From contig CBHTTJ010000001.1 in the NCBI GenBank assembly GCA_966095605.1, forward strand, positions 7,906-71,905: a DNA stretch of 64,000 nt, in the 5' to 3' direction. The stretch is from an uncultured bacterium (GTDB taxonomy: Bacteria; Verrucomicrobiota; Verrucomicrobiia; Limisphaerales; JACDHS01). Below are positions 1,829 through 44,638 of the stretch, in pieces (the stretch's first letter is position 1; each line of letters begins with the position of its first letter). A model generated the notes under the pieces. That model was not told the origin of the DNA. It searched no databases and saw only the letters and a list, made by a program, of their open reading frames with translations. Both the position numbers and the translations under genes were made by a program.

Positions 1829-4677
1829 ACTTCCAATTCTCCAATCCACTTTATCTTGTGCTGCTTCCTCCGGCAGTGTTGTGGGTAATTTGGTTGGCAT
1901 GGAAATCTGACGTGCAGATTAGCGCTTGGCGGCGCTGGGCGGCTTTGATCCTGCGGTTGGTGATTGTTCTTGCTCTGTTGCTCGCAGTGGCCGGTCTCCA
2001 GTGGAAACGCTCGATGGAAGGCGTGAACGTCTTCTTTCTCCTGGACCGGTCGGACAGTGTGCCCTCTTCCCAGCAAGAGGAGGCAAGAGAATTGGTTAAC
2101 CAATTCGCCGCAAAGAAAAAACCCGTGGACAAAGCAGGCGTTCTTGTTTTTGGGGCGGAGGCAAGTATCGAGTCTTCGGTCACTAATGCAGTCGACGTGA
2201 AGAAAATTTATTCCGTCGTTTCCACGGAGCGGTCCGATATTTCCGCTGCCATTCGACTGGGGACGGCGGCGTTTCCTGAAGGTGGACAACGTCGGTTGGT
2301 CCTTTTTTCCGATGGGAACGAGAATTCCGGGAACGCCATGGATGCCCTAACTGCGGCAAAGCCATTGGGCGTCAGCATTGATGTTGTCCCTTTGGGAGTA
2401 AATCGAGGTAACGATGTTTCCGTGCAGAAATTGACCATCCCTTCAAATATTAAAAAGGGACAGACTTTTGATGTTAAGATTTTTGCGCAAGCTGATGAAC
2501 GGCGCGCGGCGACAATTCAGCTTTTTCGCAACGACCAATCATTGGGCGAACAAAGAGTAGAACTTGCTGCGGGGAAAAACCTTTTTACTTTTCCGCAGAC
2601 CCTTACGGATCCCGGGTTCTACAGCTACAATGTAGTGTTGGATGCTCCGGGCGATTTAATTCCACAGAATAATCGGGCCACTGCATTTGCAAGTGTTCGA
2701 GGAAATCCTCGTGTCCTCCTTGTTTCATCGGAGCCAACGCAAGATGCGACGCTCGCGGCAGCTTTGCAGAGTTCTCGTTTGGAAGCAAAAATCGTCGATC
2801 TTACCCATTTTCCGGAGACTCTGGCCGAAGTGCAAAGTTACGATGCAATCTTTCTCTGCAATATTTCGGCCGGCGATCTTGGAAACGAGGGCATGAAACG
2901 GCTGGAAAGCGCCGTTAAAGATTTCGGCGTTGGATTCGTCTGCATTGGCGGCGACCAGGCTTACGCGGCAGGCGGCTATCGCGGTACACCCCTTGAGGCG
3001 GCGCTGCCTGTTGACATGGAATTGAATAGTAAGAAAGTTTTGCCCAGCGGTGCTTTGGTCATTGTTTGTCATGCGACGGAGTTTCCGAACGGGAATCAAT
3101 GGGCTCGCGATATCGCTTTCGCCGCTTTGGATGCCCTGGGACCTCAGGACGAAATGGGGATCGTGTTGTGGGACGGAAATAATCACTGGCTTTTTCCGTT
3201 GGACAAGGTTGGTGACAAGAAAGAGATGGGGCGAAAAATCGCCGGAATGAATCCCGGGGACATGCTGGACTTTGGTGGGCCAATGCAGATGGCCCACGAA
3301 GCGCTCAAGAAATCGACGGCAAATCTGAAGCACATGGTCGTTTTTAGCGATGGCGATCCAAGTGCTCCCAATAAAAAACTCGTGGAGGATATTGTTACCG
3401 ACAAAATCACGATCAGTTCCGTAATGATTGGTGGGCACGTCACGCCGGAAACAATGATGTGGATGGCAAATATGGGTCGCGGACGCTTTTATGATGTGAG
3501 ATCCCCGGCGCAGCTACCGCAGGTTTTTATCAAGGAAGCCGCGGTGATTTTGAAATCGGCAATTTTTGAACAACCATTCAAGCCTCAGCTCGTTGCTAAT
3601 AGCGAGTTGGTCCATGGAATTGGTAGCGCGGAATTTCCGCAACTTAAAGGCTACGTTTGCACAACTCCTAAACCACGCGCCGAAATTCCCCTTGTTAGTG
3701 ACAAAGGTGATCCGATTCTTGCCCATTGGCAATACGGTCTGGGACGAGCTGTCGCCTTTACTTCCGATGCCAAACCAAAATGGGCTGCCGATTGGATGGG
3801 ATGGGAAAAATATCGCCAGTTTTGGTCGCAGGTAGCGCAATGGAGTCTAAGGAAAGTGGAAAATGCGGATTTTACAACCGAAGTATCCGTCGACAAGGGA
3901 GAAGGAAATATCTCGGTCGAAGCAGTCGATGCCGAAGGGAACTACCGCAACTTTCTCAGCCTTCAAACCACAATTGTCAGCCCGAAAGGAGATAAACAGG
4001 TCGTCCAGCTCGAACAAACAGGGCCAGGTCATTATGAAGCCAAATTTCCGACAAAAGAAGTGGGCGCTTATCTGATGAATCTTTCCGACACCAAAGACGT
4101 AGGAGGCCGCGCCTCACAGGTCCTTGGCGCCAGTGTGAATTATTCTCCTGAATTCAGCGCCACAGAACCGAATCTACATCTGCTCCGGCAACTTACGGAA
4201 AGTGGCGATGGGAAAGTAATCGAACCAGAGACGGAAAACCCATTTTTACACGATCGCAAAAAAACCTTTCAACCTCATGACCTTTGGGAGTGGTTGTTGA
4301 AATTAGCTATCTTGCTGTTCCCATGGGACATCGCCATTCGGCGAGTGCAGCTGGATCGAGACGAAGTGGCCCGTTTTTTTCGTCGTTTGCAGTTCTGGAA
4401 GAAAGAAAAGGCTCTGGCGCAGGATGAATCACTGGGGGCCTTGCTGGCTCGACGGGACGAAGTTCGCTCAAAACAAACTGCACCTGCGTTTGAACCGGAT
4501 CAAGACCTGTTTAAGCCTGAACGACCGGTCAGTTTGCCGTCACACGAATCCCGGACAAGCTACCCTGAATCGGCAGCGCCGGGCCCGCCCCCCCCCGACG
4601 GCAAGCCGAAAGAGCAAAGTACCACTACCAGCCGTTTGCTCGATGCCAAGAAGAGGGCGAGGAAACATCTGGAATGA
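1825..4677 (+). CDS. Large BatA-N / von Willebrand factor A (vWA) domain membrane protein
   Basis: N-terminal Bat/aerotolerance-type anchor 'NPLYLVLLPPAVLWVIWLAW'. MIDAS-like 'FFLLDRSDSV' (DxSxS) and a second vWA-like 'VVFSDGDPS'. C-terminal TM and Pro-rich tail. GTGA start/stop overlap with the upstream gene at 1825-1828. Confidence 0.65.
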   Translation: MNFQFSNPLYLVLLPPAVLWVIWLAWKSDVQISAWRRWAALILRLVIVLALLLAVAGLQWKRSMEGVNVFFLLDRSDSVPSSQQEEARELVNQFAAKKKPVDKAGVLVFGAEASIESSVTNAVDVKKIYSVVSTERSDISAAIRLGTAAFPEGGQRRLVLFSDGNENSGNAMDALTAAKPLGVSIDVVPLGVNRGNDVSVQKLTIPSNIKKGQTFDVKIFAQADERRAATIQLFRNDQSLGEQRVELAAGKNLFTFPQTLTDPGFYSYNVVLDAPGDLIPQNNRATAFASVRGNPRVLLVSSEPTQDATLAAALQSSRLEAKIVDLTHFPETLAEVQSYDAIFLCNISAGDLGNEGMKRLESAVKDFGVGFVCIGGDQAYAAGGYRGTPLEAALPVDMELNSKKVLPSGALVIVCHATEFPNGNQWARDIAFAALDALGPQDEMGIVLWDGNNHWLFPLDKVGDKKEMGRKIAGMNPGDMLDFGGPMQMAHEALKKSTANLKHMVVFSDGDPSAPNKKLVEDIVTDKITISSVMIGGHVTPETMMWMANMGRGRFYDVRSPAQLPQVFIKEAAVILKSAIFEQPFKPQLVANSELVHGIGSAEFPQLKGYVCTTPKPRAEIPLVSDKGDPILAHWQYGLGRAVAFTSDAKPKWAADWMGWEKYRQFWSQVAQWSLRKVENADFTTEVSVDKGEGNISVEAVDAEGNYRNFLSLQTTIVSPKGDKQVVQLEQTGPGHYEAKFPTKEVGAYLMNLSDTKDVGGRASQVLGASVNYSPEFSATEPNLHLLRQLTESGDGKVIEPETENPFLHDRKKTFQPHDLWEWLLKLAILLFPWDIAIRRVQLDRDEVARFFRRLQFWKKEKALAQDESLGALLARRDEVRSKQTAPAFEPDQDLFKPERPVSLPSHESRTSYPESAAPGPPPPDGKPKEQSTTTSRLLDAKKRARKHLE

Positions 4678-28412: not shown

Positions 28413-28500
28413 GCCGGTGTGGCGAAATGGCAGACGCACAGGACTTAAAATCCTGGGACCTTAAACAGTCGTGTCGGTTCGAGTCCGACCACCGGCACCA
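28413..28500 (+). tRNA. tRNA-Leu (anticodon UAA), class II with long variable arm, CCA encoded
   Basis: Acceptor GCCGGTG/CACCGGC. Anticodon stem CAGGA/TCCTG with loop CTTAAAA. Long variable arm. T-arm GTCGG-TTCGAGT-CCGAC. Terminal ACCA. Confidence 0.9.
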
Positions 28501-28665: not shown

Positions 28666-29694
28666 ATGAAGACGCGATATTCTCTCGTCTGCCTTTCGAA
28701 TCGCGGTGGCACGTTTTACTCCTTCGATTCCGAAACGAGAAAACGAGAAAGTCTGAACACTAAAGATCGTGCCGAAGCGCAGCGACTCCTCAACGCCAAG
28801 AACGAATCCACTCACAACGCAACGGTCAATTTGCAGCTTGCCCGGGTCTATCTCCAGCACAGCGATCCAGCCATTACCACCCGGACTTGGCAGCACATCA
28901 TGGATGAAATGGCTAAACTGAAGGATGGCCCGACAGCTGATCGTTTTGTCCGCGCAACGAAGGATCAGGCCTTTGATTCCATCCGGAACGTTCCAGCCTA
29001 TTCCACCAAAGCGGAGGACTTTTTACGTGTCCTGGAGAAAGGCGGCGTTTCCACCAATGTTTTTCTCCGTCGGATTCATAACTTCGCTCTTTCGATGACG
29101 TTCATTCCTTTGCCGGTCCTTGTTCCCAGAAACTGGCCGGCCGTTCGATTCGAAGAAAAACGTGCCATTACACTCGACGAACACAGGGCCATTGTGGCAC
29201 GGGAAAATAATCCGGAGGTGAGAGCTTACTACCAGCTTTGCTGGCACATCGGCGGCGCGCAATCCGACGTTGCTGCTCTCAAAGGCGAAGACGTCGATCG
29301 CAGCCAACGGATCATCACCTTCAGCCGCAAGAAAACGAAAGTGCCGGTGATCATCTCCTATGGTGAAGAGCTCGCGCAGATCCTCGCCACACTTCCATCG
29401 ACGGGCCCGCTCTTCCCAACGCTGATCAACTACCACGAGCGGCACCGGTCCGAGATGTTTGCTAGACGCTGCAAGAGCCTGAAGATCGAGAACGTGTCAC
29501 TTCACTCTTATCGCTATTCCTGGGCAGAGCGAGCCAAGCAAGTCGGCTATCCAGAACGGTTCGCTCAACAGGCGCTCGGGCACAATTCCAAGGCTGTACA
29601 TCGAGCTTACGCGAAGAACGCTTTGGTGCGGCTGCCATCGCTCGAAGAATACGAACAAAAGATCGTGCCACTACCGAAAGTCGTGAATGGTTGA
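28666..29694 (+). CDS. int: Tyrosine recombinase / phage integrase
   Basis: C-terminal catalytic region 'HSYRYSWAERA...ALGHNSKAVHRAYAK' (H-x-x-R ... H ... Y) and upstream 'ITLDEHRAIV'. Adjacent to a tRNA gene. Confidence 0.85.
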   Translation: MKTRYSLVCLSNRGGTFYSFDSETRKRESLNTKDRAEAQRLLNAKNESTHNATVNLQLARVYLQHSDPAITTRTWQHIMDEMAKLKDGPTADRFVRATKDQAFDSIRNVPAYSTKAEDFLRVLEKGGVSTNVFLRRIHNFALSMTFIPLPVLVPRNWPAVRFEEKRAITLDEHRAIVARENNPEVRAYYQLCWHIGGAQSDVAALKGEDVDRSQRIITFSRKKTKVPVIISYGEELAQILATLPSTGPLFPTLINYHERHRSEMFARRCKSLKIENVSLHSYRYSWAERAKQVGYPERFAQQALGHNSKAVHRAYAKNALVRLPSLEEYEQKIVPLPKVVNG

Positions 29695-34465: not shown

Positions 34466-35476
34466 CTAGTTGTTATGGGTAATCGCGACGAGGCGGACGT
34501 TTTTGTTTTCCCAGACACGCGCCCAGTTCGCGCCGTTCTCCAACTCTGCATTCGTCGGCGAGTCACCAGCGACCGCAGCGGAAGTGAACTTCACACCACG
34601 CGGATGCAGGATATAACGACGGCGATTGATCAGAACGGTATCGCTATCGAGCGGCACACGCGCGAGTTCGACGCCTTCAGTGCCGTGACCGCCCTGGAGC
34701 GGAGTGCCGTCCAGCGGAGCGACACCTTTGCCAAAAGCCCCAGAGCCGAAGAGATAGGTCGTGTAAACTTGGCCATCAGTCGTTCCGGCACGAACGGGCA
34801 ATGAATCATCCACGATCACACGGCGACCTTGGAACACACGAAGCATCGGTTTTCCTTCGCTGTCCGGAATGAAATCGATGAGATCGAGTTTGCGAAGCGC
34901 TGCTTCGGTTGCCGAATGCATCGCGACAGCCGTGAGGCGATCAGCGGCGTCACCGAGTTTTGTGCAAGCGTCGACGAACGTCGCGCCGTTTAGCCGTGTG
35001 GCAGCGCTCTGTCCGACTATCGTCTCGGAATTGATGCCGAGGAGGTTTCCAGCCATCGAACCCGCCGCGAAAATGCCTTTAAGCGACGAGATGACGATGC
35101 CTTCGTCGGTACGAGCCCAGTAATCGCCGACCAGGTCGACGATCGCTTGCATCGGATCATCGCCAGAAATGACTTTGGCGAGATGGTTCACGGACCAGAC
35201 CTGCGCATCGTTATGGATGCGTGCGATGTCCTGATCAGCGGCGATCTTGTTCACGTTGAGTGAACCAGCGTCGCTCAAGATTTGGCGTGCTGCCGTGAGG
35301 TCCTTCCAGAACGGCATCTTTACTTCGCGTCCACCGCCTGCCGCGAGTTCGTCGAACTCTGGCGCCATCTCAACGATGCCGGACTGTCCGAAACGGGAGA
35401 GCTCTGCGGTACGCTCGATAGCGTATTTCTCGAACTCTGTTGGAATGATGATGTCTGCTACTGCTGTCTTGGCCAT
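34466..35476 (-). CDS. Major capsid protein (HK97-fold type)
   Basis: 336 aa. 'MAKTAVADIIIPTEFEKYAIERTAELSRF...' N-terminus and overall pattern typical of phage coat proteins. Sits after the scaffold and portal genes. Confidence 0.7.
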   Translation of the reverse strand: MAKTAVADIIIPTEFEKYAIERTAELSRFGQSGIVEMAPEFDELAAGGGREVKMPFWKDLTAARQILSDAGSLNVNKIAADQDIARIHNDAQVWSVNHLAKVISGDDPMQAIVDLVGDYWARTDEGIVISSLKGIFAAGSMAGNLLGINSETIVGQSAATRLNGATFVDACTKLGDAADRLTAVAMHSATEAALRKLDLIDFIPDSEGKPMLRVFQGRRVIVDDSLPVRAGTTDGQVYTTYLFGSGAFGKGVAPLDGTPLQGGHGTEGVELARVPLDSDTVLINRRRYILHPRGVKFTSAAVAGDSPTNAELENGANWARVWENKNVRLVAITHNN

Positions 35477-35503: not shown

Positions 35504-36268
35504 TCAGGCGGCAGCTTTCAAGCGTGCAGCGAGCTGAGGATCGGTTTTCTGTAGTTTCATTTGTTCGGTCAGGTTCCACGTCTCACGCTTGAACGGGTTC
35601 TTCACCGAAGGCAGCGTTCTCGCAGAGCTGCTGGCAGCACCGCCGCCAGAGTTGGATTCGAAAAGATGCGGAGCTTCGGACACTTGCGTATCGATCCACT
35701 CCTCTAAAGTCATTGGTGTAATGCCGTCTTTGCCGTAACGCACGGTCTTGCCGCCGCCCTCGAAAGCCGTTGGCACACCGTTCACGAGACGGAACACTGA
35801 ACGAGCGCGGGATGTGATGTCAGGAATCGCTGTAGGGCGGAGACCACGCTTCGTCGCCACAGTGGTCACTCCCTGGTCGATCTGGATCGTTGTGAGGCGT
35901 GCATTGAGCGCGTCACGTTCACTCGTAAGACCCGTGATTTGCTTCTCCCACTCGGTCTTGAGTGACTTCACTCGGTTCTCGATGATCTTCTCGATTTCCT
36001 CGGGCTTGTGGCCCTTCGCTTCGAGTTCGAGTTTCTGTTTCTCTTCAGCGAGGCGACGCACTTCGTCAGGATCAATGCCGTCAAAGCGTTTCTTGAGATC
36101 GTCACGTTCTTTGATCAGAGCGACGTTGTTGTTGCGAAACTCGTCGAGTTTCGTTTTGTCGACGGCACCATCGACGTCGAGGAGCCAGGCTCCATCGCGT
36201 TCGACGTAAAGCGATTGTTGTTCGGCAGGAATTTCTTCCCGCGATTTGAATTTGTATTTCAGTGGCAT
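35504..36268 (-). CDS. Phage scaffolding protein (GP20-like)
   Basis: Highly charged coiled-coil N-terminal half ('DLKKRFDGIDPDEVRRLAEEKQKLELEAKGHKPEEIEKIIENR'). Lies between portal and capsid. Confidence 0.6.
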   Translation of the reverse strand: MPLKYKFKSREEIPAEQQSLYVERDGAWLLDVDGAVDKTKLDEFRNNNVALIKERDDLKKRFDGIDPDEVRRLAEEKQKLELEAKGHKPEEIEKIIENRVKSLKTEWEKQITGLTSERDALNARLTTIQIDQGVTTVATKRGLRPTAIPDITSRARSVFRLVNGVPTAFEGGGKTVRYGKDGITPMTLEEWIDTQVSEAPHLFESNSGGGAASSSARTLPSVKNPFKRETWNLTEQMKLQKTDPQLAARLKAAA

Positions 36269-36277
36269 AAATCGGTT

Positions 36278-37765
36278 TTAGCTAACGGTTGTTGGTATTG
36301 GTGCGGGAGTTTTTGCCGGAGAGGCGCTCACAAGAGATTTCTCGTCCTCATCGGTCCGGCCGGGCGGCAGGATTTCACCACGGCGGAAGAGATCGAACAT
36401 GGTTTCCTGGCTGATGGCACCAGCCTGCCACGCACTCACGACAGCCGTGATTTCATCACTCGTCATGCCCCGCGTGCTGAAGTCGGTATTCACCTGTGCG
36501 AGCACGAGATCATCGTTCACGTCCTCAGGAGTTTCTTCGGTCGAGTTCCACCAGTAGACCCAGCGGAGCACACGTGTGATCGATTCACTCACACTGAGAG
36601 ACACGGCATTGAGCACACTGTCTTCACCGCTCTGGCGGAGTTCGATGGCTTCAGCTGTTTCGCCGACGCGTTTCTGTCCCTCCAGCATGCGGGTACCGAG
36701 CACAGCCATGAGGCGCTCATCGCGGTCCATAGCACGCTCGAAAGTTGTTAAGCCCTGACCGGTGAACTCAAGGAAGCCAGCCGTGGCTCCTGGTGTTTCC
36801 GCCACCCACGCCGTGCTCGATCCGATACGCAACGAGGCTGATTTATCGAAGCCACTTACCCACGCCGTTGGAAGTGCAGTGAAATGCAGGCCATGCTTGT
36901 AGTCTGCGTTGAGGCGATAGTGATCGAGATTGACGGAAATGATGTCAGCCAGCGGAAGTTTATCGACACACTCCTGACAGTTCCGGGCGCCATGGAACAC
37001 GAGCGGAATGAGCGGCAGTGATTTTCCCAGGCGGAGCGGCACACGAGTCTCGGTTTTGATCCACTCGGTTTTCTTGCGGCTGCGGCGGTTGGTGGTGTTT
37101 TGTTTCTCTACATCGTCCCGTTGTTTCCAGATATCGACTTGATAGAACCACTCCGGTTTTGCGTCAGGAGATTTTGTCTCACCCTGCACGAGACGGAGCA
37201 CACGGAGCTGTTCACTGTTCTCAGAGATGAAGACGTCATCGTCATGATTCTTCGCAGTCTCACGGAGGACTACGAGTGAGAGCAGCGTTCTGCCGTTGAT
37301 TCGGTCTGTGCGCCAGTTGATGATTTGTTCAGCAGTGTAGAGAACTGCGTAAGCGCGTTGTTCTGCCTCGTTTTCCCAGTCCACGAGCGTGGCTGCACGA
37401 CCGACACGGATGATCTCACTCGTTACGTTCTTGGTGTAGGACGAGAGAGTTGTGCCGATCATGTCAGCATCGTCCAGGAATGTTTTTAGCGCGTTACTGA
37501 CTCCTGATTTATTCTCCGGAAGTTTGAAGGTTGGTTCACGACGAAAGATCAGCCCGACGAATCCGTCAGCGGTTCGAGCGGATGCATTGAAGAACGAAGC
37601 GCGTTCCTTGTATGCGGCATACTCTTCGTCGGTCTGAGAATCGAGTCGAGGAAGGTAACGAACGCCGCCAGACTTCACTGCATCTTCACCGGCGAACACG
37701 TCACGAGCCCGCAACCATGCAGGAAGGTTTTCGTCGTAGCTCGGATGTGTGGAATCAACTGGCAT
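36278..37765 (-). CDS. Phage portal protein (DUF4055-like)
   Basis: 'NLPAWLRARDVFAGEDAVKSGGVRYLPRLDSQTDEEYAAYKERASFFNASARTADGFVGLIFRREP' matches the conserved N-terminal region of DUF4055 portals. 495 aa. Confidence 0.7.
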   Translation of the reverse strand: MPVDSTHPSYDENLPAWLRARDVFAGEDAVKSGGVRYLPRLDSQTDEEYAAYKERASFFNASARTADGFVGLIFRREPTFKLPENKSGVSNALKTFLDDADMIGTTLSSYTKNVTSEIIRVGRAATLVDWENEAEQRAYAVLYTAEQIINWRTDRINGRTLLSLVVLRETAKNHDDDVFISENSEQLRVLRLVQGETKSPDAKPEWFYQVDIWKQRDDVEKQNTTNRRSRKKTEWIKTETRVPLRLGKSLPLIPLVFHGARNCQECVDKLPLADIISVNLDHYRLNADYKHGLHFTALPTAWVSGFDKSASLRIGSSTAWVAETPGATAGFLEFTGQGLTTFERAMDRDERLMAVLGTRMLEGQKRVGETAEAIELRQSGEDSVLNAVSLSVSESITRVLRWVYWWNSTEETPEDVNDDLVLAQVNTDFSTRGMTSDEITAVVSAWQAGAISQETMFDLFRRGEILPPGRTDEDEKSLVSASPAKTPAPIPTTVS

Positions 37766-37940
37766 CTGAGTGACGAATTACGCCACTCGAAGTGTGATGT
37801 AAAAGCGAACAGAGGGATGTTGCGCAACCACACGCAATCGCGTGTCAATCCGCGTAAGGAATCTTCGAGTTCATGTTTACGAACAAAGAAATTCGTGCAA
37901 CAACGAACCTCTTCTCAACACTCCTCAGAGTCTTCACACC

Positions 37941-38130
37941 GTAGCTCTCTGTATGTGTGTGTCAGCTCCGCACAGGCCGCGAGGTTAGTCGGCACTGCAT
38001 CTGCCGCGCCAGCCACGTGCCCTCGTGCCCTGCTGTCACGGCAGATGCTTTGCCGGAGAAATGGAATGCGCTTTCGCGCAGCGCGTCCCGTGCTGCGCAA
38101 AAGCGATGACACACACATACAGAGAGCTAC
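37941..38130. repeat. Nested inverted-repeat element: 24-bp perfect outer stem enclosing two internal hairpins
   Basis: GTAGCTCTCTGTATGTGTGTGTCA (37941-37964) is the exact reverse complement of 38107-38130. Inner stems are 37997-38006/38039-38048 (10 bp perfect) and 38069-38084/38090-38105 (16 positions; 1 mismatch, 1 G-T). Confidence 0.8.
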
Positions 38131-38408
38131 TACGTTTCGTTCGCATCCACTGGCTTCGCTTTCAGTCGAGCGTCTCCGGTTTGTATTACCGTCGCGTCAC
38201 GTTTCCCGCGCAGGTCTGGCGTGCGGTCGGCAGGCCTTCAGAGTTTCGTCCTCGGTTGCCCTGGTGGCAGCCGTTGGTTTATCGTTGGCTGCACTACACT
38301 GGTTGGTTGTAGTAGTGAGTGACGTTCGTAGCGCTGCGAATCGATTTTTGTTGCGAAGGCGACATTTCCCGATCATCAACCAAGCATTACAAACCAACAC
38401 TCATATCG

Positions 38409-39395
38409 ATGACTGAAAACGATTTTGAAGAGTTCTTTGGGGCAATGGCCAAGCGTTTTCGCAATGAGACGCACTTATCGGATCTCACGTTCACCGCATT
38501 GGAGCTGATCCCTGAATTTAAGAAGGACTTTCTCCATTTCTTTTTCCCTGATTTATCGTTCAAGGATGAAGATGAGATTGCTGTTTACCGTGAATTCAGT
38601 TTGGGATCGAGTAATGGACAGCCCGATTTGGTTTTCCAATCACGTAATTGGGACGCGATCGTCGAGAATAAATTGTGGGATCAGAATTATCACTTTGACC
38701 AATATGGCGCTAAGCCGATCTCGCCACGAAAACCAACGCATACAGGGTTAATAGCAAACCATTCGGTGCAGCGCCCCCCAGCAGCTTCGAAGTGGCAGAT
38801 ACGAGAATGGAGAAATTTTCTAGTCGCGTTCGAATGCAAAAAATACCCTCGTTATGACGGCGTTTTTGTCGCCTATTTGGCATACGTAAAAAGGATTTGC
38901 AAAATGACTGAGTTCAAAAATTTTCAGTTCGATCCCAGTTCGCTGTTTGCTTTGACTCACTTTGTGAGAATGGCTGAGTCAGCGTTGAAGGTGTCAACAC
39001 CTGATACTTATCGAATTACGGTTCAAACCAGCAAAAAAGGAAATTTTGGTGAAAGCTGGGCTGGCTATTGGTTTCAACTACATCCAACAGATTCCACTGA
39101 ACACCTGTCACTTTTTTTTGGGATCGATTTTTCTTTCGGTCCGCCGCCCACAATTGGCGTTCATGTCCATAAACATGAAAACGCTCAGTTTCAGATGATA
39201 GCTGATTCAGTGAACGATGGACCCTCATATAAAATCCGACGAGAGATGAAAGACGGAATAGTTTTTCTAAATCTGCCGAATGATCAGTTTCTCGCCATTA
39301 ATAGCGAAACAGCTAAACAGAAACAGCTGGATGCATTAGTGCGATTTCTCCATACGTGTTGTAATGACTTAACTCGGTTCGTTGTTGCTACGTAG
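38409..39395 (+). CDS. PD-(D/E)XK nuclease-superfamily protein
   Basis: 'GQPDLVFQSRNWDAIVENKLWD' gives the PD...(D/E)xK arrangement. Start moved to the ATG at 38409 ('MTENDFEEFF...'). Confidence 0.5.
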   Translation: MTENDFEEFFGAMAKRFRNETHLSDLTFTALELIPEFKKDFLHFFFPDLSFKDEDEIAVYREFSLGSSNGQPDLVFQSRNWDAIVENKLWDQNYHFDQYGAKPISPRKPTHTGLIANHSVQRPPAASKWQIREWRNFLVAFECKKYPRYDGVFVAYLAYVKRICKMTEFKNFQFDPSSLFALTHFVRMAESALKVSTPDTYRITVQTSKKGNFGESWAGYWFQLHPTDSTEHLSLFFGIDFSFGPPPTIGVHVHKHENAQFQMIADSVNDGPSYKIRREMKDGIVFLNLPNDQFLAINSETAKQKQLDALVRFLHTCCNDLTRFVVAT

Positions 39396-39686: not shown

Positions 39687-41037
39687 CTCACAGGGCGCGC
39701 ACGGAGTAGGCACACAATTAAACTCACCGCTATCGCGGCTCGTCATGAAAGGCGCGCTTCGCGCGCCAGGCATTCAGTTATCGAGGCTGCTTTGCAGCAT
39801 TCGCACGCTTTGTTCCCGCCTTCCAAGCGTCACGGCCAGCGCTCGTCATTCGCTTTGCCTGCGGCCGCTCGGCCGTGGCTGATCGCTCGCAGGCTCGCGG
39901 CCACCGCGCAAGCCGTGACCCTTGGAACCTTCCCGCGGCCGTGGCCGTCCGCTAGGACCCTGACTCCGAGCTTTGCAGTCGCTCCATTCCGCTTTCGTTC
40001 CGCTGCGCTACACACGCTTCACTCCACTCTCGCAAACATCGGAGACAGGCTTGTTTCCCCAGCTCGGCAAGAGTCTTGGATTTGCTTCGGCTACGGTTCT
40101 CGGGTCCATGAGAGGGAGATTGAGGTGGACCCTGCGAGCCTGTGCCTGCCCAAATCCGGCGACACTTGCTGTCGCTCCCAATTTCAGTCTGACATCTGAT
40201 CGTTCGCGCTCCGCGATGAGCCTTCGGCTTTGCCCCGTCACCCTCAAAGCCACGGCTCTTCGCTTCACGCTGCCGTCAGAAGTCAGAAGGAACGCGTCCC
40301 CGCGAGCCCATTGAAAGCGAACCGCCAATGATTCTTTGCTTCGTTCAGTGGGTGGCATGAAGCACCGGCAAACCGCTACGCTTCTCGCCTGCGCTGCGAG
40401 GCTGGGCGTTTGCCTTGCTTCCCGGCTCAGACACAAGAGCTGTTATGTGCAAAGCCGCCTCAGTGCCGGTATCCGCTGCGCAGAACCTCCGGCACCGAGT
40501 CTCCGCCGTCTCATCGCACGGCACGCGTTCGACGGCCCGGTTCATCGCTACACAACAGCGTCTTGTGTCCAAGCTCGGCTGAGCTGCTGTTACATTCACT
40601 GCTAATCCGGACCTCGCGCTCGTCCGGGCAGTGCCCGCGCCAGCAGCTCAGGCATCCTTCATGCCACCCAGTTTTCACTTTGCAGCTTCGCAGTCAGGCG
40701 GTTCGCATGATGAGGAAATCACAAGCCATTCCGCTTCGCTTCATTCGGGGCAATGCGTTCGCAATGCCAGCGCTCACTACGTTCGATTGAAAGGGAATGG
40801 TGTGACCGCTACGCGGCGATGTTTGCTGATCGGATGTTTGAAATGTTTTCAGGTCGTTTGAGCTTTTCCTGCTTCGTCTCCGTTCTTCGCCCATCACACG
40901 GCCGCTTATCCTGACAGGGGCCTTTCGCGGTGCCCTCTGAAGACTACTCCCGCGGGCCGCCATGTCAGCGCGGCACTCATTTCATGGTGAAGGGCGATAG
41001 ACCGTAGACGAACAGCAAAGCTCAAAAAAAAAAGACC

Positions 41038-41448
41038 ATGAAAACAAAACAAACATCCAATCAGAACAAACAAGTTAACAACAATTCAGAGCTCCAGAGC
41101 CGAGCCGAACAGCTTAGCTCAGCACAGCAAGACAAACTGATTCCAATCGATTTCGACGTGCGTCGACAGAACCGGACATTGCCGACAGACAAGGTTTTGG
41201 CACTTCTGCAAAAGGATGCCCCCCGGTTTTACGAGCTGGCCGAAGTCGTTGGCAAATGGGTGTGGATTCAATTCAAAGAAAAGCAACCACGGGAAGTCAC
41301 AGCAGTTTTGGCTCAGCTTGGTTTCCACTGGAACAATACCCGCCAGGCATGGCAGCACCCGTGCGGCATTTTCCGCAAGGGACCGACCGAAGCTAATCCA
41401 CGCGAGATTTTCGGCAGCCGTTTCGCGGCAGATCACAAAGCAGCCTGA
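41038..41448 (+). CDS. Hypothetical protein
   Basis: 136 aa with protein-like composition ('GKWVWIQFKEKQPREVTAVLAQLGFHWNNTRQAWQHPCG'). No family assigned. Confidence 0.45.
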   Translation: MKTKQTSNQNKQVNNNSELQSRAEQLSSAQQDKLIPIDFDVRRQNRTLPTDKVLALLQKDAPRFYELAEVVGKWVWIQFKEKQPREVTAVLAQLGFHWNNTRQAWQHPCGIFRKGPTEANPREIFGSRFAADHKAA

Positions 41449-41491
41449 ACCAATCGGGGCGGAGAAATTCGCCCCCATTCTTTTCAACACT

Positions 41492-41893
41492 ATGAACAAT
41501 GAGCAAAACGAATCGCCCTTTGGCGAAGTGATCTTCAGCTACACCCGTTCACAAGCCGTCGCCGACGGCATGCAGGTCGAAGTGACGAAGACCGCGCAGG
41601 AAGCCGGAATCCGCTTTCCGGTATTCCTTACGCGCACGGTGTTCGATGCGTACGTTTCCGTCCCTCCGAATGTTTCCGGCCAAGACGAAGCAGGCCGATT
41701 GTGGGACATCGTCTGGATGTTGCGCCACGCTATCCAACGCAGCCGCACCGGAGTCGATCGCATTCCCGTCGCTCTCTACGTCCGCAACGACGACCGAGCC
41801 GCAAAGCTGGTTAAGCTCATTGCAACTTGTGGCCCGCTCGACATCGACGACCCACAACCAGCCATCACCGTAATGATGCCCGACGAGGATTGA
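41492..41893 (+). CDS. Hypothetical protein
   Basis: Start moved to the ATG at 41492 ('MNNEQNESPFGEVIFSYTRSQAVADGMQVEVTK...GQDEAGRLWDIVWML'). Resembles small proteins seen on plasmids/ICEs (memory only). Confidence 0.45.
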   Translation: MNNEQNESPFGEVIFSYTRSQAVADGMQVEVTKTAQEAGIRFPVFLTRTVFDAYVSVPPNVSGQDEAGRLWDIVWMLRHAIQRSRTGVDRIPVALYVRNDDRAAKLVKLIATCGPLDIDDPQPAITVMMPDED

Positions 41894-43210: not shown

Positions 43211-44638
43211 TTATACACCCCTCAACTTCCTTTGCGTAATCGCGCGCGTCTTCGTTGCAACCAGGTAACGAAACGCATCCGCGGCATCATCCCCGCCAGC
43301 CCCATCTTCATCCGCGTCGACTTTCAGAACATCTTCGGGCCTGTTCGGGTCATGCTGAAGTGACGGAAGTGATTCGAGCAACCGCGCACAACGCCGATGA
43401 ATGAACAGCGTCGGCCTGATGCCTGCGTCTACATCGCCGAACCGCTGCAAAATTTCCGCCCACCCGTTGATCCGGTCCGTGTTCGCACAGCGCAAGGTGA
43501 TACCTTGCCGCGCATACTGCGCCGCGACGGTAGTTCCGTCGCTCTGTTTGCTGAACACGTCCGCGCCCGCCACAAACCGTTTCAAATCTGAAATCTCTAA
43601 TGGCCGCGTCTGCCCATTGGCCATTTGCAATCGGCTATTGGCTATGCGCCGCCGTCCGACCATAGCCTTGATTGCCTCCGCATGCCGCTGTGGCAACCAA
43701 AGCCTTTGCGCATGTTCATCGACAATGAAAATGTTCCCATCGCCATCCGTGCAACCAAGCAGGCAAACGGTGTAATGCGTGAACCCGTAATCCAAACCGG
43801 CAAACCATTCGCGCGCGCGAGTGTCGTCGAAATCGTCGATCACATGCACATCACGACGAAACGTCGTGAAGAACTGGCCAGCCGCAATGTCCCAATCGCC
43901 ATCAAACCACGCGCGTTTCTGCCACCCCGTTAAATTCGCCAGGACTTTCGTGTATTCCGGATTGTTGAAACGATTGCCGCCGACTTTTGCGGGAACGAAA
44001 CGCGTCTCCCTTTCGCGACCTTCCGCAAACGGCACGATGAACTTCGCTCGATACCAGGCATGACCGATCCCACCCGGGTTTGTGGTCGAATAGATCCTCG
44101 GCCGCCAATTCGGCTTCGATGTTCGGCAACACGTCGAAATATCCTGATGCTTCCGCGACGACAACGTCGTCGCTTCCTCGATCCCAATCACGTCGTATTC
44201 CAACCCAAGGTAAGCATCGATGTCCTTTTCGGCCTGAAAGTGCCCGGCAATGATCCGCGAGCCATTGGAAAAGGACAGCACACCTCGATAAGCCGAGAAC
44301 TCATGGCTCAAGTTGCCGAATAACCGCCGCCGCAGATCCTCAAAGTTCTCCATGTTCGCTTTTCCAACTTTGCGCAAAAGCAAACACTTCAGTCCAGGCA
44401 CACGCTGACAATCATCCGCCCCCATTTGTGCGAGCAACCAATGCGACTTCCCACCGCCGCGCGCGCCGCCGTATCCGACTGCCGTCGGTCCGTCGGCGCG
44501 ATCACACAGTCGAGCGGCCGCACTCGCCATGAGTTGCCGTTCCTGAAGCACAATGTTCGCCCGTTCGAAATTGTGCATTTGATCCTTCGGACAGCCCGCC
44601 CGCCGTCCGACGTAGAAGTAACGTTCCCAAGGCGTCAT
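43211..44638 (-). CDS. terL: Phage terminase large subunit
   Basis: Walker A 'GGARGGGKSHWLL', 'VIGIEEAT' Walker B-like, C-terminal nuclease-region acidic motifs. 475 aa. Confidence 0.8.
   Translation of the reverse strand: MTPWERYFYVGRRAGCPKDQMHNFERANIVLQERQLMASAAARLCDRADGPTAVGYGGARGGGKSHWLLAQMGADDCQRVPGLKCLLLRKVGKANMENFEDLRRRLFGNLSHEFSAYRGVLSFSNGSRIIAGHFQAEKDIDAYLGLEYDVIGIEEATTLSSRKHQDISTCCRTSKPNWRPRIYSTTNPGGIGHAWYRAKFIVPFAEGRERETRFVPAKVGGNRFNNPEYTKVLANLTGWQKRAWFDGDWDIAAGQFFTTFRRDVHVIDDFDDTRAREWFAGLDYGFTHYTVCLLGCTDGDGNIFIVDEHAQRLWLPQRHAEAIKAMVGRRRIANSRLQMANGQTRPLEISDLKRFVAGADVFSKQSDGTTVAAQYARQGITLRCANTDRINGWAEILQRFGDVDAGIRPTLFIHRRCARLLESLPSLQHDPNRPEDVLKVDADEDGAGGDDAADAFRYLVATKTRAITQRKLRGV

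Follow-up and report, generated by a model that had tools for sequence, protein, structure and literature searches.

The window analyzed here is a stretch of 64,000 nucleotides (64 kb) from an uncultured bacterium of the Verrucomicrobiota, and it holds a prophage. A tRNA-Leu gene (anticodon taa, 28413-28500) is immediately followed by a tyrosine-recombinase integrase (28666-29694; PF00589, 2.7e-08), and the prophage probably has its attachment end here. Over ~29-50 kb the GC content goes up from ~0.50 to values of 0.53-0.59. Genes for capsid, scaffold, portal and large terminase are present (Table 1), and the portal and terminase genes are separated by a gap of about 5.4 kb that is occupied mostly by plus-strand genes. 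The 190-nt inverted-repeat element considered here is located in the interval that separates the portal start from the first gene of this gap, and its distance of 176-365 nt from the portal start (37765), as given in an earlier reading made from the DNA letters only (the sequence-only reading), is confirmed. That reading also called the element intergenic, which is not wholly so, as its right arm turned out to be the start of a conserved 68-aa ORF on the plus strand that had been left unannotated (ATG at 38106, stop codon at 38310-38312). The palindrome that follows this ORF, a doubtful terminator, is absent from the terminator-scan list.

Table 1. Features of the element and of the genes around it in the 64,000-nt window.
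Feature	Coordinates	Strand	Basis or remark
P1 5' arm ("anti-start")	37941..37964	+	perfect complement of the TG of the ATG plus codons 2-9
Stem extension, 5' side	37965..37981	+	RNAalifold consensus
P2 hairpin with invariant internal-loop core	37989..38055	+	helix 90% paired, 10 doubly changed pairs, 14 loci
P3 small hairpin, TGCGC-TTTC-GCGCA	38067..38080	+	comparative consensus, helix 92% paired
Second hairpin of the sequence-only reading	38069..38105	+	alternative to P1b + P3
P1 3' arm	38107..38130	+	start codon TG plus codons 2-9 (THTYRELL)
Small gene, 68 aa, MTHTYRELLRFVRIHWLRFQSSVSGLYYRRVTFPAQVWRAVGRPSEFRPRLPWWQPLVYRWLHYTGWL	38106..38312	+	frame conservation, homologues
Conserved block, leader plus ORF	37935..38309	+	82% identity to L013, 73% to L011/L001
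Weak terminator-like palindrome TTCGTAGCGCTGCGAA, then T run	38325..38350	+	13 nt past the small ORF stop
First accessory gene, 328 aa	38409..39395	+	no family match
Portal gene	36278..37765	-	PF13264 2.5e-36, phrog_145 5e-119; divergent from the small gene
Scaffold gene	35504-36268	-	
Capsid gene	34466-35476	-	
Large terminase gene	43211-44638		

The two 24-nt arms of the repeat (P1) are 100% complementary and are 142 nt apart. The 24-mer occurs in just these two copies in the window, against 0 expected from 100 shuffles, and no third copy was found in the 64 kb even when up to three mismatches were allowed. The perfect 24-bp outer stem described previously is both real and highly non-random, and the window has a single copy of the element. 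Also present as described are the tandem CGTGCCCT CGTGCCCT at 38016-38031 and the first inner stem (GCATCTGCCG/CGGCAGATGC), which an inverted-repeat search lengthens to 37990-38013 / 38032-38055, with 83% complementarity. The second inner stem (38069-38085 / 38089-38105) is 88% complementary. As plus-strand RNA the 190 nt have a minimum free energy (MFE) of -116.6 kcal/mol (z = -10.8), a value equaled by 0 of 200 shuffled sequences, while the minus strand gives -118.2 kcal/mol (z = -10.2), and the MFE fold of the window sequence itself has the three-way shape that the sequence-only reading had drawn. Searches with Rfam 15 at gathering scores matched only the tRNA in the window and nothing at the element, and an E-value search of 37700-38450 gave three matches (E = 3.7-8.4) that are far under the gathering scores. 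Two known types of structure were tried and rejected. An intrinsic terminator is contradicted by the lack of a T run after P1 on either strand, and the terminator scan lists only small internal hairpins. A retron msr-msd would have inverted repeats, which are present, but it lacks a reverse transcriptase neighbor here, where no such domain was found among the neighboring proteins.

The small ORF has homologues in large protein collections. Three called proteins from a set of 5.8 billion match it at E = 2e-23 to 6e-20, and a profile search of 1.84 billion cluster representatives yielded a family of 108 clusters at 50% identity (71 at E <= 1e-10), many of which are over-extended gene calls that translate the leader. 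In seven aligned loci the frame and the stop codon are kept and the other frames are not conserved, differences at third codon positions are ~1.5-2x those at positions 1 and 2, and each pair of loci differs by 12-21 synonymous codon changes. The AF2 model of the protein is a helix-loop-helix (helical hairpin) with a pLDDT of 85.4. Given the conserved frame, the codon-position bias, the database homologues and the confident AF2 model, the ORF is taken to be a real gene. The window protein is Trp/Arg-rich, with a pI of about 11.6, a net charge of +9 and 16% Arg, and members of the family are 68-85 aa long, with pI values of 11-12, net charges of +8 to +15 and 6-13% Trp around the conserved core RW.R.Q...Y..RVT.P...W.A.G.P..FRP.LPWWQP.V..L..GW. 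Their GRAVY scores are -0.05 to -0.56 and the maximum 19-residue Kyte-Doolittle value is < 1.0, with no hydrophobic or transmembrane-like segment. The small protein has no match in Pfam, PHROGs, the PDB (by sequence) or cultured phages, a fold search with its model against the PDB and BFVD gave no significant matches, and the DNA of the element has no similarity to cultured phages.

A reading of the whole region as one gene of 223 aa (37745-38416) was considered, and L013 and L011, two of the homologous loci (loci are designated by L numbers), carry equivalent ORFs; it was rejected on the grounds that the frames differ among loci and that indels occur in lengths not divisible by three. In the leader the plus strand is nearly stop-free, giving ORFs of 215-250 aa in non-conserved frames (window 37745-38416 (+), L013 3430-4077, L011 2872-3624 (-)), and public gene calls of family members often over-extend through it. 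One conserved leader stretch (CTGCCACTTCGCTTCGGA...) reads as the peptide PATSLRTK in the database proteins P0138, P0143 and P0170 and as PATPLRTK in P0195. Gene callers evidently mishandle this locus, in that the ORF is either missed or extended through the stop-poor leader.

Protein look-ups and portal-based searches produced 15 independent loci with a homologous ORF, from Verrucomicrobia-type prophages and metagenomes. A scan for the arm in the genomes of 185,579 species found one contig, from a Verrucomicrobiales MAG (L001), which carries a homologous locus, and a scan of metagenomes found two real homologues, L013 and L011 (the latter a longer version of L001), both of which are syntenic, the other 18 matches being single low-complexity arms. 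In IMG/VR, exact scans were empty for the 24-mer and for two further conserved strings, an 18-mer scan gave two matches, both due to chance, and a scan with the P2-core pattern (see below) gave 63 matches, of which one was real. Outside the window the element was found only alongside the homologous small ORF, and the block is absent from prophages with 75-82% identical portals (L004-L006) and from most portal-based viral loci. These data bear on the possibility that the element is a MITE or a REP-type genomic repeat that was inserted by chance, which a length of 190 nt and perfect 24-bp terminal inverted repeats would suggest. It is, however, single-copy, all real matches of the arm elsewhere are syntenic, and there is no target-site duplication (the flanks are ...CACACC/GTAGC and GCTAC/TACGTT, the slash marking the end of the element). 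Moreover, homology with the window starts sharply at the portal-side arm and extends 180 nt past the other arm into the ORF, that arm being coding sequence. A REP/MITE family, the case that would have undone the sequence-only reading, is highly improbable.

The gene that follows the small ORF differs in every homologous locus, and the suggestion that the element marks the edge of an accessory insert was upheld. The cargo includes an SF1 helicase in L011, a Gp49/HTH toxin-antitoxin pair in L013 and a toxin-antitoxin pair in L040, while in L046 a kinase/cyclase, a methyltransferase, an SRAP-domain protein and a pentapeptide-repeat protein lie between the module and the portal. PADLOC found nothing convincing among the cargo genes. 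The module lies in the prophage backbone and borders a hotspot of toxin-antitoxin and defense-like cargo between portal and terminase. A DUF6573 gene recurs in related phages between terminase and portal, in a block on the opposite strand (window 41216-41893; L004 6306-6722; L046 13624-14028), and since it is recurrent, part of the "accessory insert" is conserved backbone. In the 328-aa cargo gene of the window a PD..(D/E)xK-like string (QPDLVF...VENK) can be seen by eye, and the gene has no Pfam, PHROGs or PADLOC match. The stretch from 39970 to 41200 has the highest GC content in the window (0.59) and holds only short overlapping ORFs of doubtful coding status on both strands; an ORF at 41038-41448 gives a weak PADLOC match to ZorC (9e-05, 39 residues) that is probably noise. 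In L045 (70-1382) and L047 (348-1337) the module adjoins cellular cation-transport genes (CNNM/CorC; cation efflux), with an ORF of 99-104 aa between transporter and module and neither a phage gene nor a portal on the contig. Possibly these two loci mark the end of a prophage, or else the module also occurs outside phages.

The stem keeps a fixed register with the small gene. In every one of the 15 loci there is a stem of 17-31 Watson-Crick pairs whose 3' arm starts exactly at the T of the ATG, while 479 other ATGs in the same loci, taken as controls, have a mean of 8.3 pairs and never exceed 19. From one subfamily to the next the arms have unrelated sequences (e.g., GTATGTGTGTGTCA, TTTTATTTTCTTCA and AGGTGCGTGCCA), and the encoded N-termini differ with them (MTHTY, MKKIKK and MARTYY). 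Over the 17 innermost pairs of P1 in 14 distinct loci, 97.1% of the alignment cells are paired and 15 of the 17 pairs are changed on both sides, with 72 doubly changed cells against 21+-3 in shuffled alignments and far lower values in slid controls; no pairs are invariant except those that involve the U and G of the AUG. L013, L011 and L041 have the same 5' arm with few or no changes, and in L040 and L047 it covaries with the coding arm. In the outer stem, the last two nucleotides of the start codon (U and G) and codons 2-9 are base-paired with an upstream "anti-start" sequence. The sequence-only reading had proposed a structured element on the basis of a single sequence, and the homologues bear this out with a conserved fold and strong covariation, in P1, in P2 (Table 1) and in the alignment of the nested type (described below), where 93.4% of cells are paired and 23 of 68 pairs are doubly changed, compared with 6.4+-2.1 after shuffling and at most 6 after sliding.

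That reading had also offered a packaging signal, an ssDNA origin and a recombination site as functions. Some form of DNA-level element, such as an ssDNA hairpin for replication priming or packaging or a recombination site at the insert border, would be consistent with the position of the repeat at the border between backbone and variable cargo, with the high conservation of the arm sequence among the closest three loci and with the fact that both strands fold equally well. It would leave unexplained why the stem starts at the ATG in 15 of 15 loci and why the arms evolve freely while they maintain their pairing. In addition, no recombinase, second site or target duplication was seen, the 142-nt spacer disfavors cruciform extrusion, and pac and cos sites are usually near the terminase small-subunit region, from which the element is far removed. 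We regard a DNA-level function as improbable. The long spacer argues instead that the repeat acts by single-strand folding rather than as a palindrome in duplex DNA.

Two topologies are found among the loci. In the nested type (the window, L013, L011, L041, L040 and L047) the hairpin P2 lies inside P1, and the arms enclose about 142-164 nt. The RNAalifold consensus for this type consists of P1, an extension that includes P1b, the hairpin P2 and a small hairpin P3; the extension comprises three pairs (37965-37967 with 38102-38104) and then P1b (~37970-37981 with 38082-38093), for which 9 of 11 pairs are changed on both sides in the homologue alignment. The second hairpin of the sequence-only reading, which competes with P1b and P3 for the same nucleotides, fared less well than the first. 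It is present in the window, where the fold that contains it is better by 8.6 kcal/mol (-116.6 against -108.0 kcal/mol for the fold with P1b and P3), but it is the weakest part of the structure across the homologues, being 79.8% paired with two pairs doubly changed, and the comparative data prefer the predicted P1b and P3. In the simple type (L036, L032, L028, L037, L043-L046 and L049) the arms are separated by a loop of 11-15 nt that ends with GGUG or GUGU and is followed by the A of the AUG. The loops of 11-13 nt in L036, L043, L044, L045 and L049 tend to start with GGG and to end with GGUG before the AUG, and the GGUG-AUG junction makes tandem out-of-frame UGA codons (GUGAUGA); the opposite strand of this loop would start with UCACC, which resembles the 3' end of 16S rRNA. 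Termination-reinitiation coupling by way of the recurrent GTGATGA was considered and rejected on the grounds that upstream ORFs are not conserved and are often without a start codon.

In both topologies P2 accompanies the start-codon stem, either within it or just upstream, at 64-68 nt from the ATG in the nested type and 137-163 nt upstream in the simple type. It has an invariant internal-loop motif, CGCCAGC/GCUGUCA, which in the window is formed by CGCCAGCC at 38007-38014 opposite GCTGTCA at 38032-38038. The core consists, in order, of G-C, a C.U mismatch (14 of 14 loci), C-G, A-U, G-C and C-G, together with one variable position, with C.A in 10 loci and U-A in the other 4, and it is flanked by covarying stems. 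The tip of the hairpin is variable, and the tandem 8-mer at the tip in the window is not conserved. Within the window the core pattern is confined to a single occurrence, that in P2; of 50 loci, 13 match it, and all of these have the small ORF except L034 (a weak, partial protein match only). L049 (599-629, 861-894) and L050 (768-798, 1030-1065) each have two P2-core motifs upstream of the small ORF, and these may be tandem binding sites. The string ACG(T/C)TTCGTTCGC(C)ATCCA is found in nested-type loci just past the 3' arm, inside the ORF (38127-38152 in the window), and just upstream of P2 in the simple-type loci L036 (~3150-3175, reverse), L028, L037 and L044. This placement hints at an origin of the two topologies by rearrangement of one ancestral leader.

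The preceding description takes the RNA to be on the strand of the ORF, and the alternative is that the structure under selection is on the minus strand, either as a cis-antisense RNA that covers the start of the small gene, comparable to IS10 RNA-OUT or a type I antitoxin, or as a leader or RNase III processing hairpin in the transcript that enters the portal operon. In the antisense version, transcription of the sense mRNA may begin within the repeat, leaving it one arm only, and an antisense hairpin would also explain why the stem has its edge at the ATG. On the ORF strand, the non-canonical pairs of P1 lean toward A.C, which is G.U on the other strand, rather than G.U (~14 versus 6 independent events), and the C.A/U-A position of P2 reads U.G/U-A on the minus strand. 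The bias in P1 is not significant, however, and in the nested-type alignment the ORF strand has more G.U than A.C cells (10 versus 4). The minus strand also has the lower folding energy in 12 of 12 loci, but the gap vanishes against composition-matched shuffles, with equal z-scores on the two strands, and folding energy was discarded as a guide to the strand, its preference being an effect of composition. With respect to gene order, the leader-side genes lie on the opposite strand and point away from the small gene, a series that usually ends in the portal, in every locus with enough flank (the window, L011, L013, L028, L036, L040, L045, L046 and L047). Yet the prophages with closely related portal operons noted above are without the element, so portal expression does not need it, and the idea that it is a general portal leader, or a cis-regulator of the minus-strand late genes in general as the sequence-only reading had suggested, was rejected for the same reason. 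L045 and L047 have the element without a nearby portal, on the minus strand the hairpin is not followed by a U run, and a pure portal-leader version leaves the ATG register unexplained. Taking both sides into account, we consider a minus-strand function to be rather unlikely, and it is the antisense version that has a precedent. In IS10, an inverted repeat over the start codon encodes a long antisense stem-loop (RNA-OUT), and the sense mRNA (RNA-IN) starts inside the repeat; such an arrangement would be compatible with both the ATG register and the hint of wobble pairs on the opposite strand. The gene here is no transposase, however, there are no insertion-sequence ends, and the nested form with its 142-nt spacing is without an IS10 counterpart. 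A sense/antisense pair would fit all of the strand observations.

The reading that we favor, with a probability of roughly 55%, is that the element is a structured 5' leader that occludes the initiation of translation of the gene for the small basic protein. A free-standing ncRNA, another function that had been suggested, is not supported; the register is locked to the ATG of the plus-strand ORF. The modeled probability that nucleotides -12 to +15 around the AUG are unpaired is 0.09 with the 5' arm and 0.48 without it, and because the 5' arm buries the AUG in this accessibility model, a transcript that carries the arm would have a buried initiation site and the gene would be translationally off by default. 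Switching it on would require removal, cleavage or sequestration of the 5' arm, and the candidate means are processing by a nuclease, transcription that begins within the leader, or the action of an antisense RNA or of a protein. The perfect duplex of 24-31 bp would be a substrate of the size used by RNase III, and P2 is most likely the place where a regulator would dock; this could be the basic protein itself, in which case it would be autoregulated. Against this reading, a promoter scan did not find a sigma-70-like promoter upstream of the small gene, and the ORF has no clear Shine-Dalgarno sequence. Also counting against a cis switch is the stability of the structure, about -117 kcal/mol, which seems too great for a simple switch. 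Start codons within hairpins are familiar from phages, as in the MS2 replicase operator and in the mom gene of Mu, which is regulated by Com, although those stems have 7-10 bp and the one here has 24-31 bp plus extensions. The likeness is that an AUG in a stem is the point at which a small protein controls translation, as is proposed here. Ribosome standby at structured sites is a subject touched on in PMC5934652.

Two other systems resemble the module more as a whole. In the pL leader of phage lambda, nutL, a highly structured segment and the autoregulated N gene follow one another (PMC5725501). The leader described here is similar in that a hairpin of the protein-binding type is followed by a large stable helix where the gene begins and then by a small basic phage protein. 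P2 is a conserved leader hairpin with an invariant core, and no boxA-like sequence was recognized by eye. Wilson et al. reportedly described in 2002 an involvement of RNase III in the lambda N leader. The helix of lambda is upstream of the ribosome-binding site, whereas the one here includes the AUG and eight codons, and the small protein is similar to N in its Arg content (16%) but has no similarity in sequence to N or to Pfam or PHROG families. In addition, the downstream genes of several loci are oriented toward the small gene, which is unsuited to an antiterminator that reads into them. The second system is that of type I toxins, the mRNAs of which (hok, tisB, dinQ, zorO, aapA1) have primary transcripts that are translationally inert until they are processed, and the antitoxin is an antisense RNA of 60-200 nt that base-pairs with the toxin mRNA (PMC8594479); such systems are also treated in PMC5066626 and PMC5416894. 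The common features are a small ORF on a mobile or prophage element and an initiation region that is sequestered in a stable mRNA structure, which in the present case is modeled by the low accessibility given above. Type I toxins, however, are mostly short hydrophobic membrane peptides, in contrast to basic proteins of 68-85 aa without a hydrophobic segment, the stem here is far longer and more perfect, and the sole hint of an antisense RNA is the opposite-strand wobble bias. Membership in either the lambda N/nut or the type I toxin-antitoxin group fails on the protein.

A broader proposal, which we put forward tentatively, is that leader and protein form a new type of self-contained RNA-protein switch, borne by Verrucomicrobia-type phages where their hotspot of defense and toxin-antitoxin cargo begins, in which the protein would bind the invariant P2 core, in the sense or the antisense RNA, and together with nuclease cleavage of the 24-31 bp duplex would gate its own synthesis and that of its neighbors. 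Such a switch could conceivably be a functional analogue of lambda N/nutL, or a type I toxin module of a non-membrane kind, that is unrelated to either in sequence and has a coding-arm stem without precedent, evolving in concert with the first 8-10 codons, and this too is possible rather than probable.

If the occluding-leader reading is correct, the element would represent a cis-regulatory RNA family that is undescribed and absent from Rfam, paired with a small protein whose family of 108 clusters is likewise undescribed and is missing from Pfam, PHROGs and the PDB; both come from phages of a poorly studied phylum. It would also be an extreme and clean case of co-evolution between RNA structure and coding sequence, in which a near-perfect helix of 24-31 bp covers the first 8-10 codons of a gene and is maintained in two topologies. 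For the phages themselves, the module would be a conserved landmark for the hotspot between portal and terminase, with its toxin-antitoxin pairs, helicase, methyltransferase and kinase, and in this way it could aid the mining of phage-borne defense genes.
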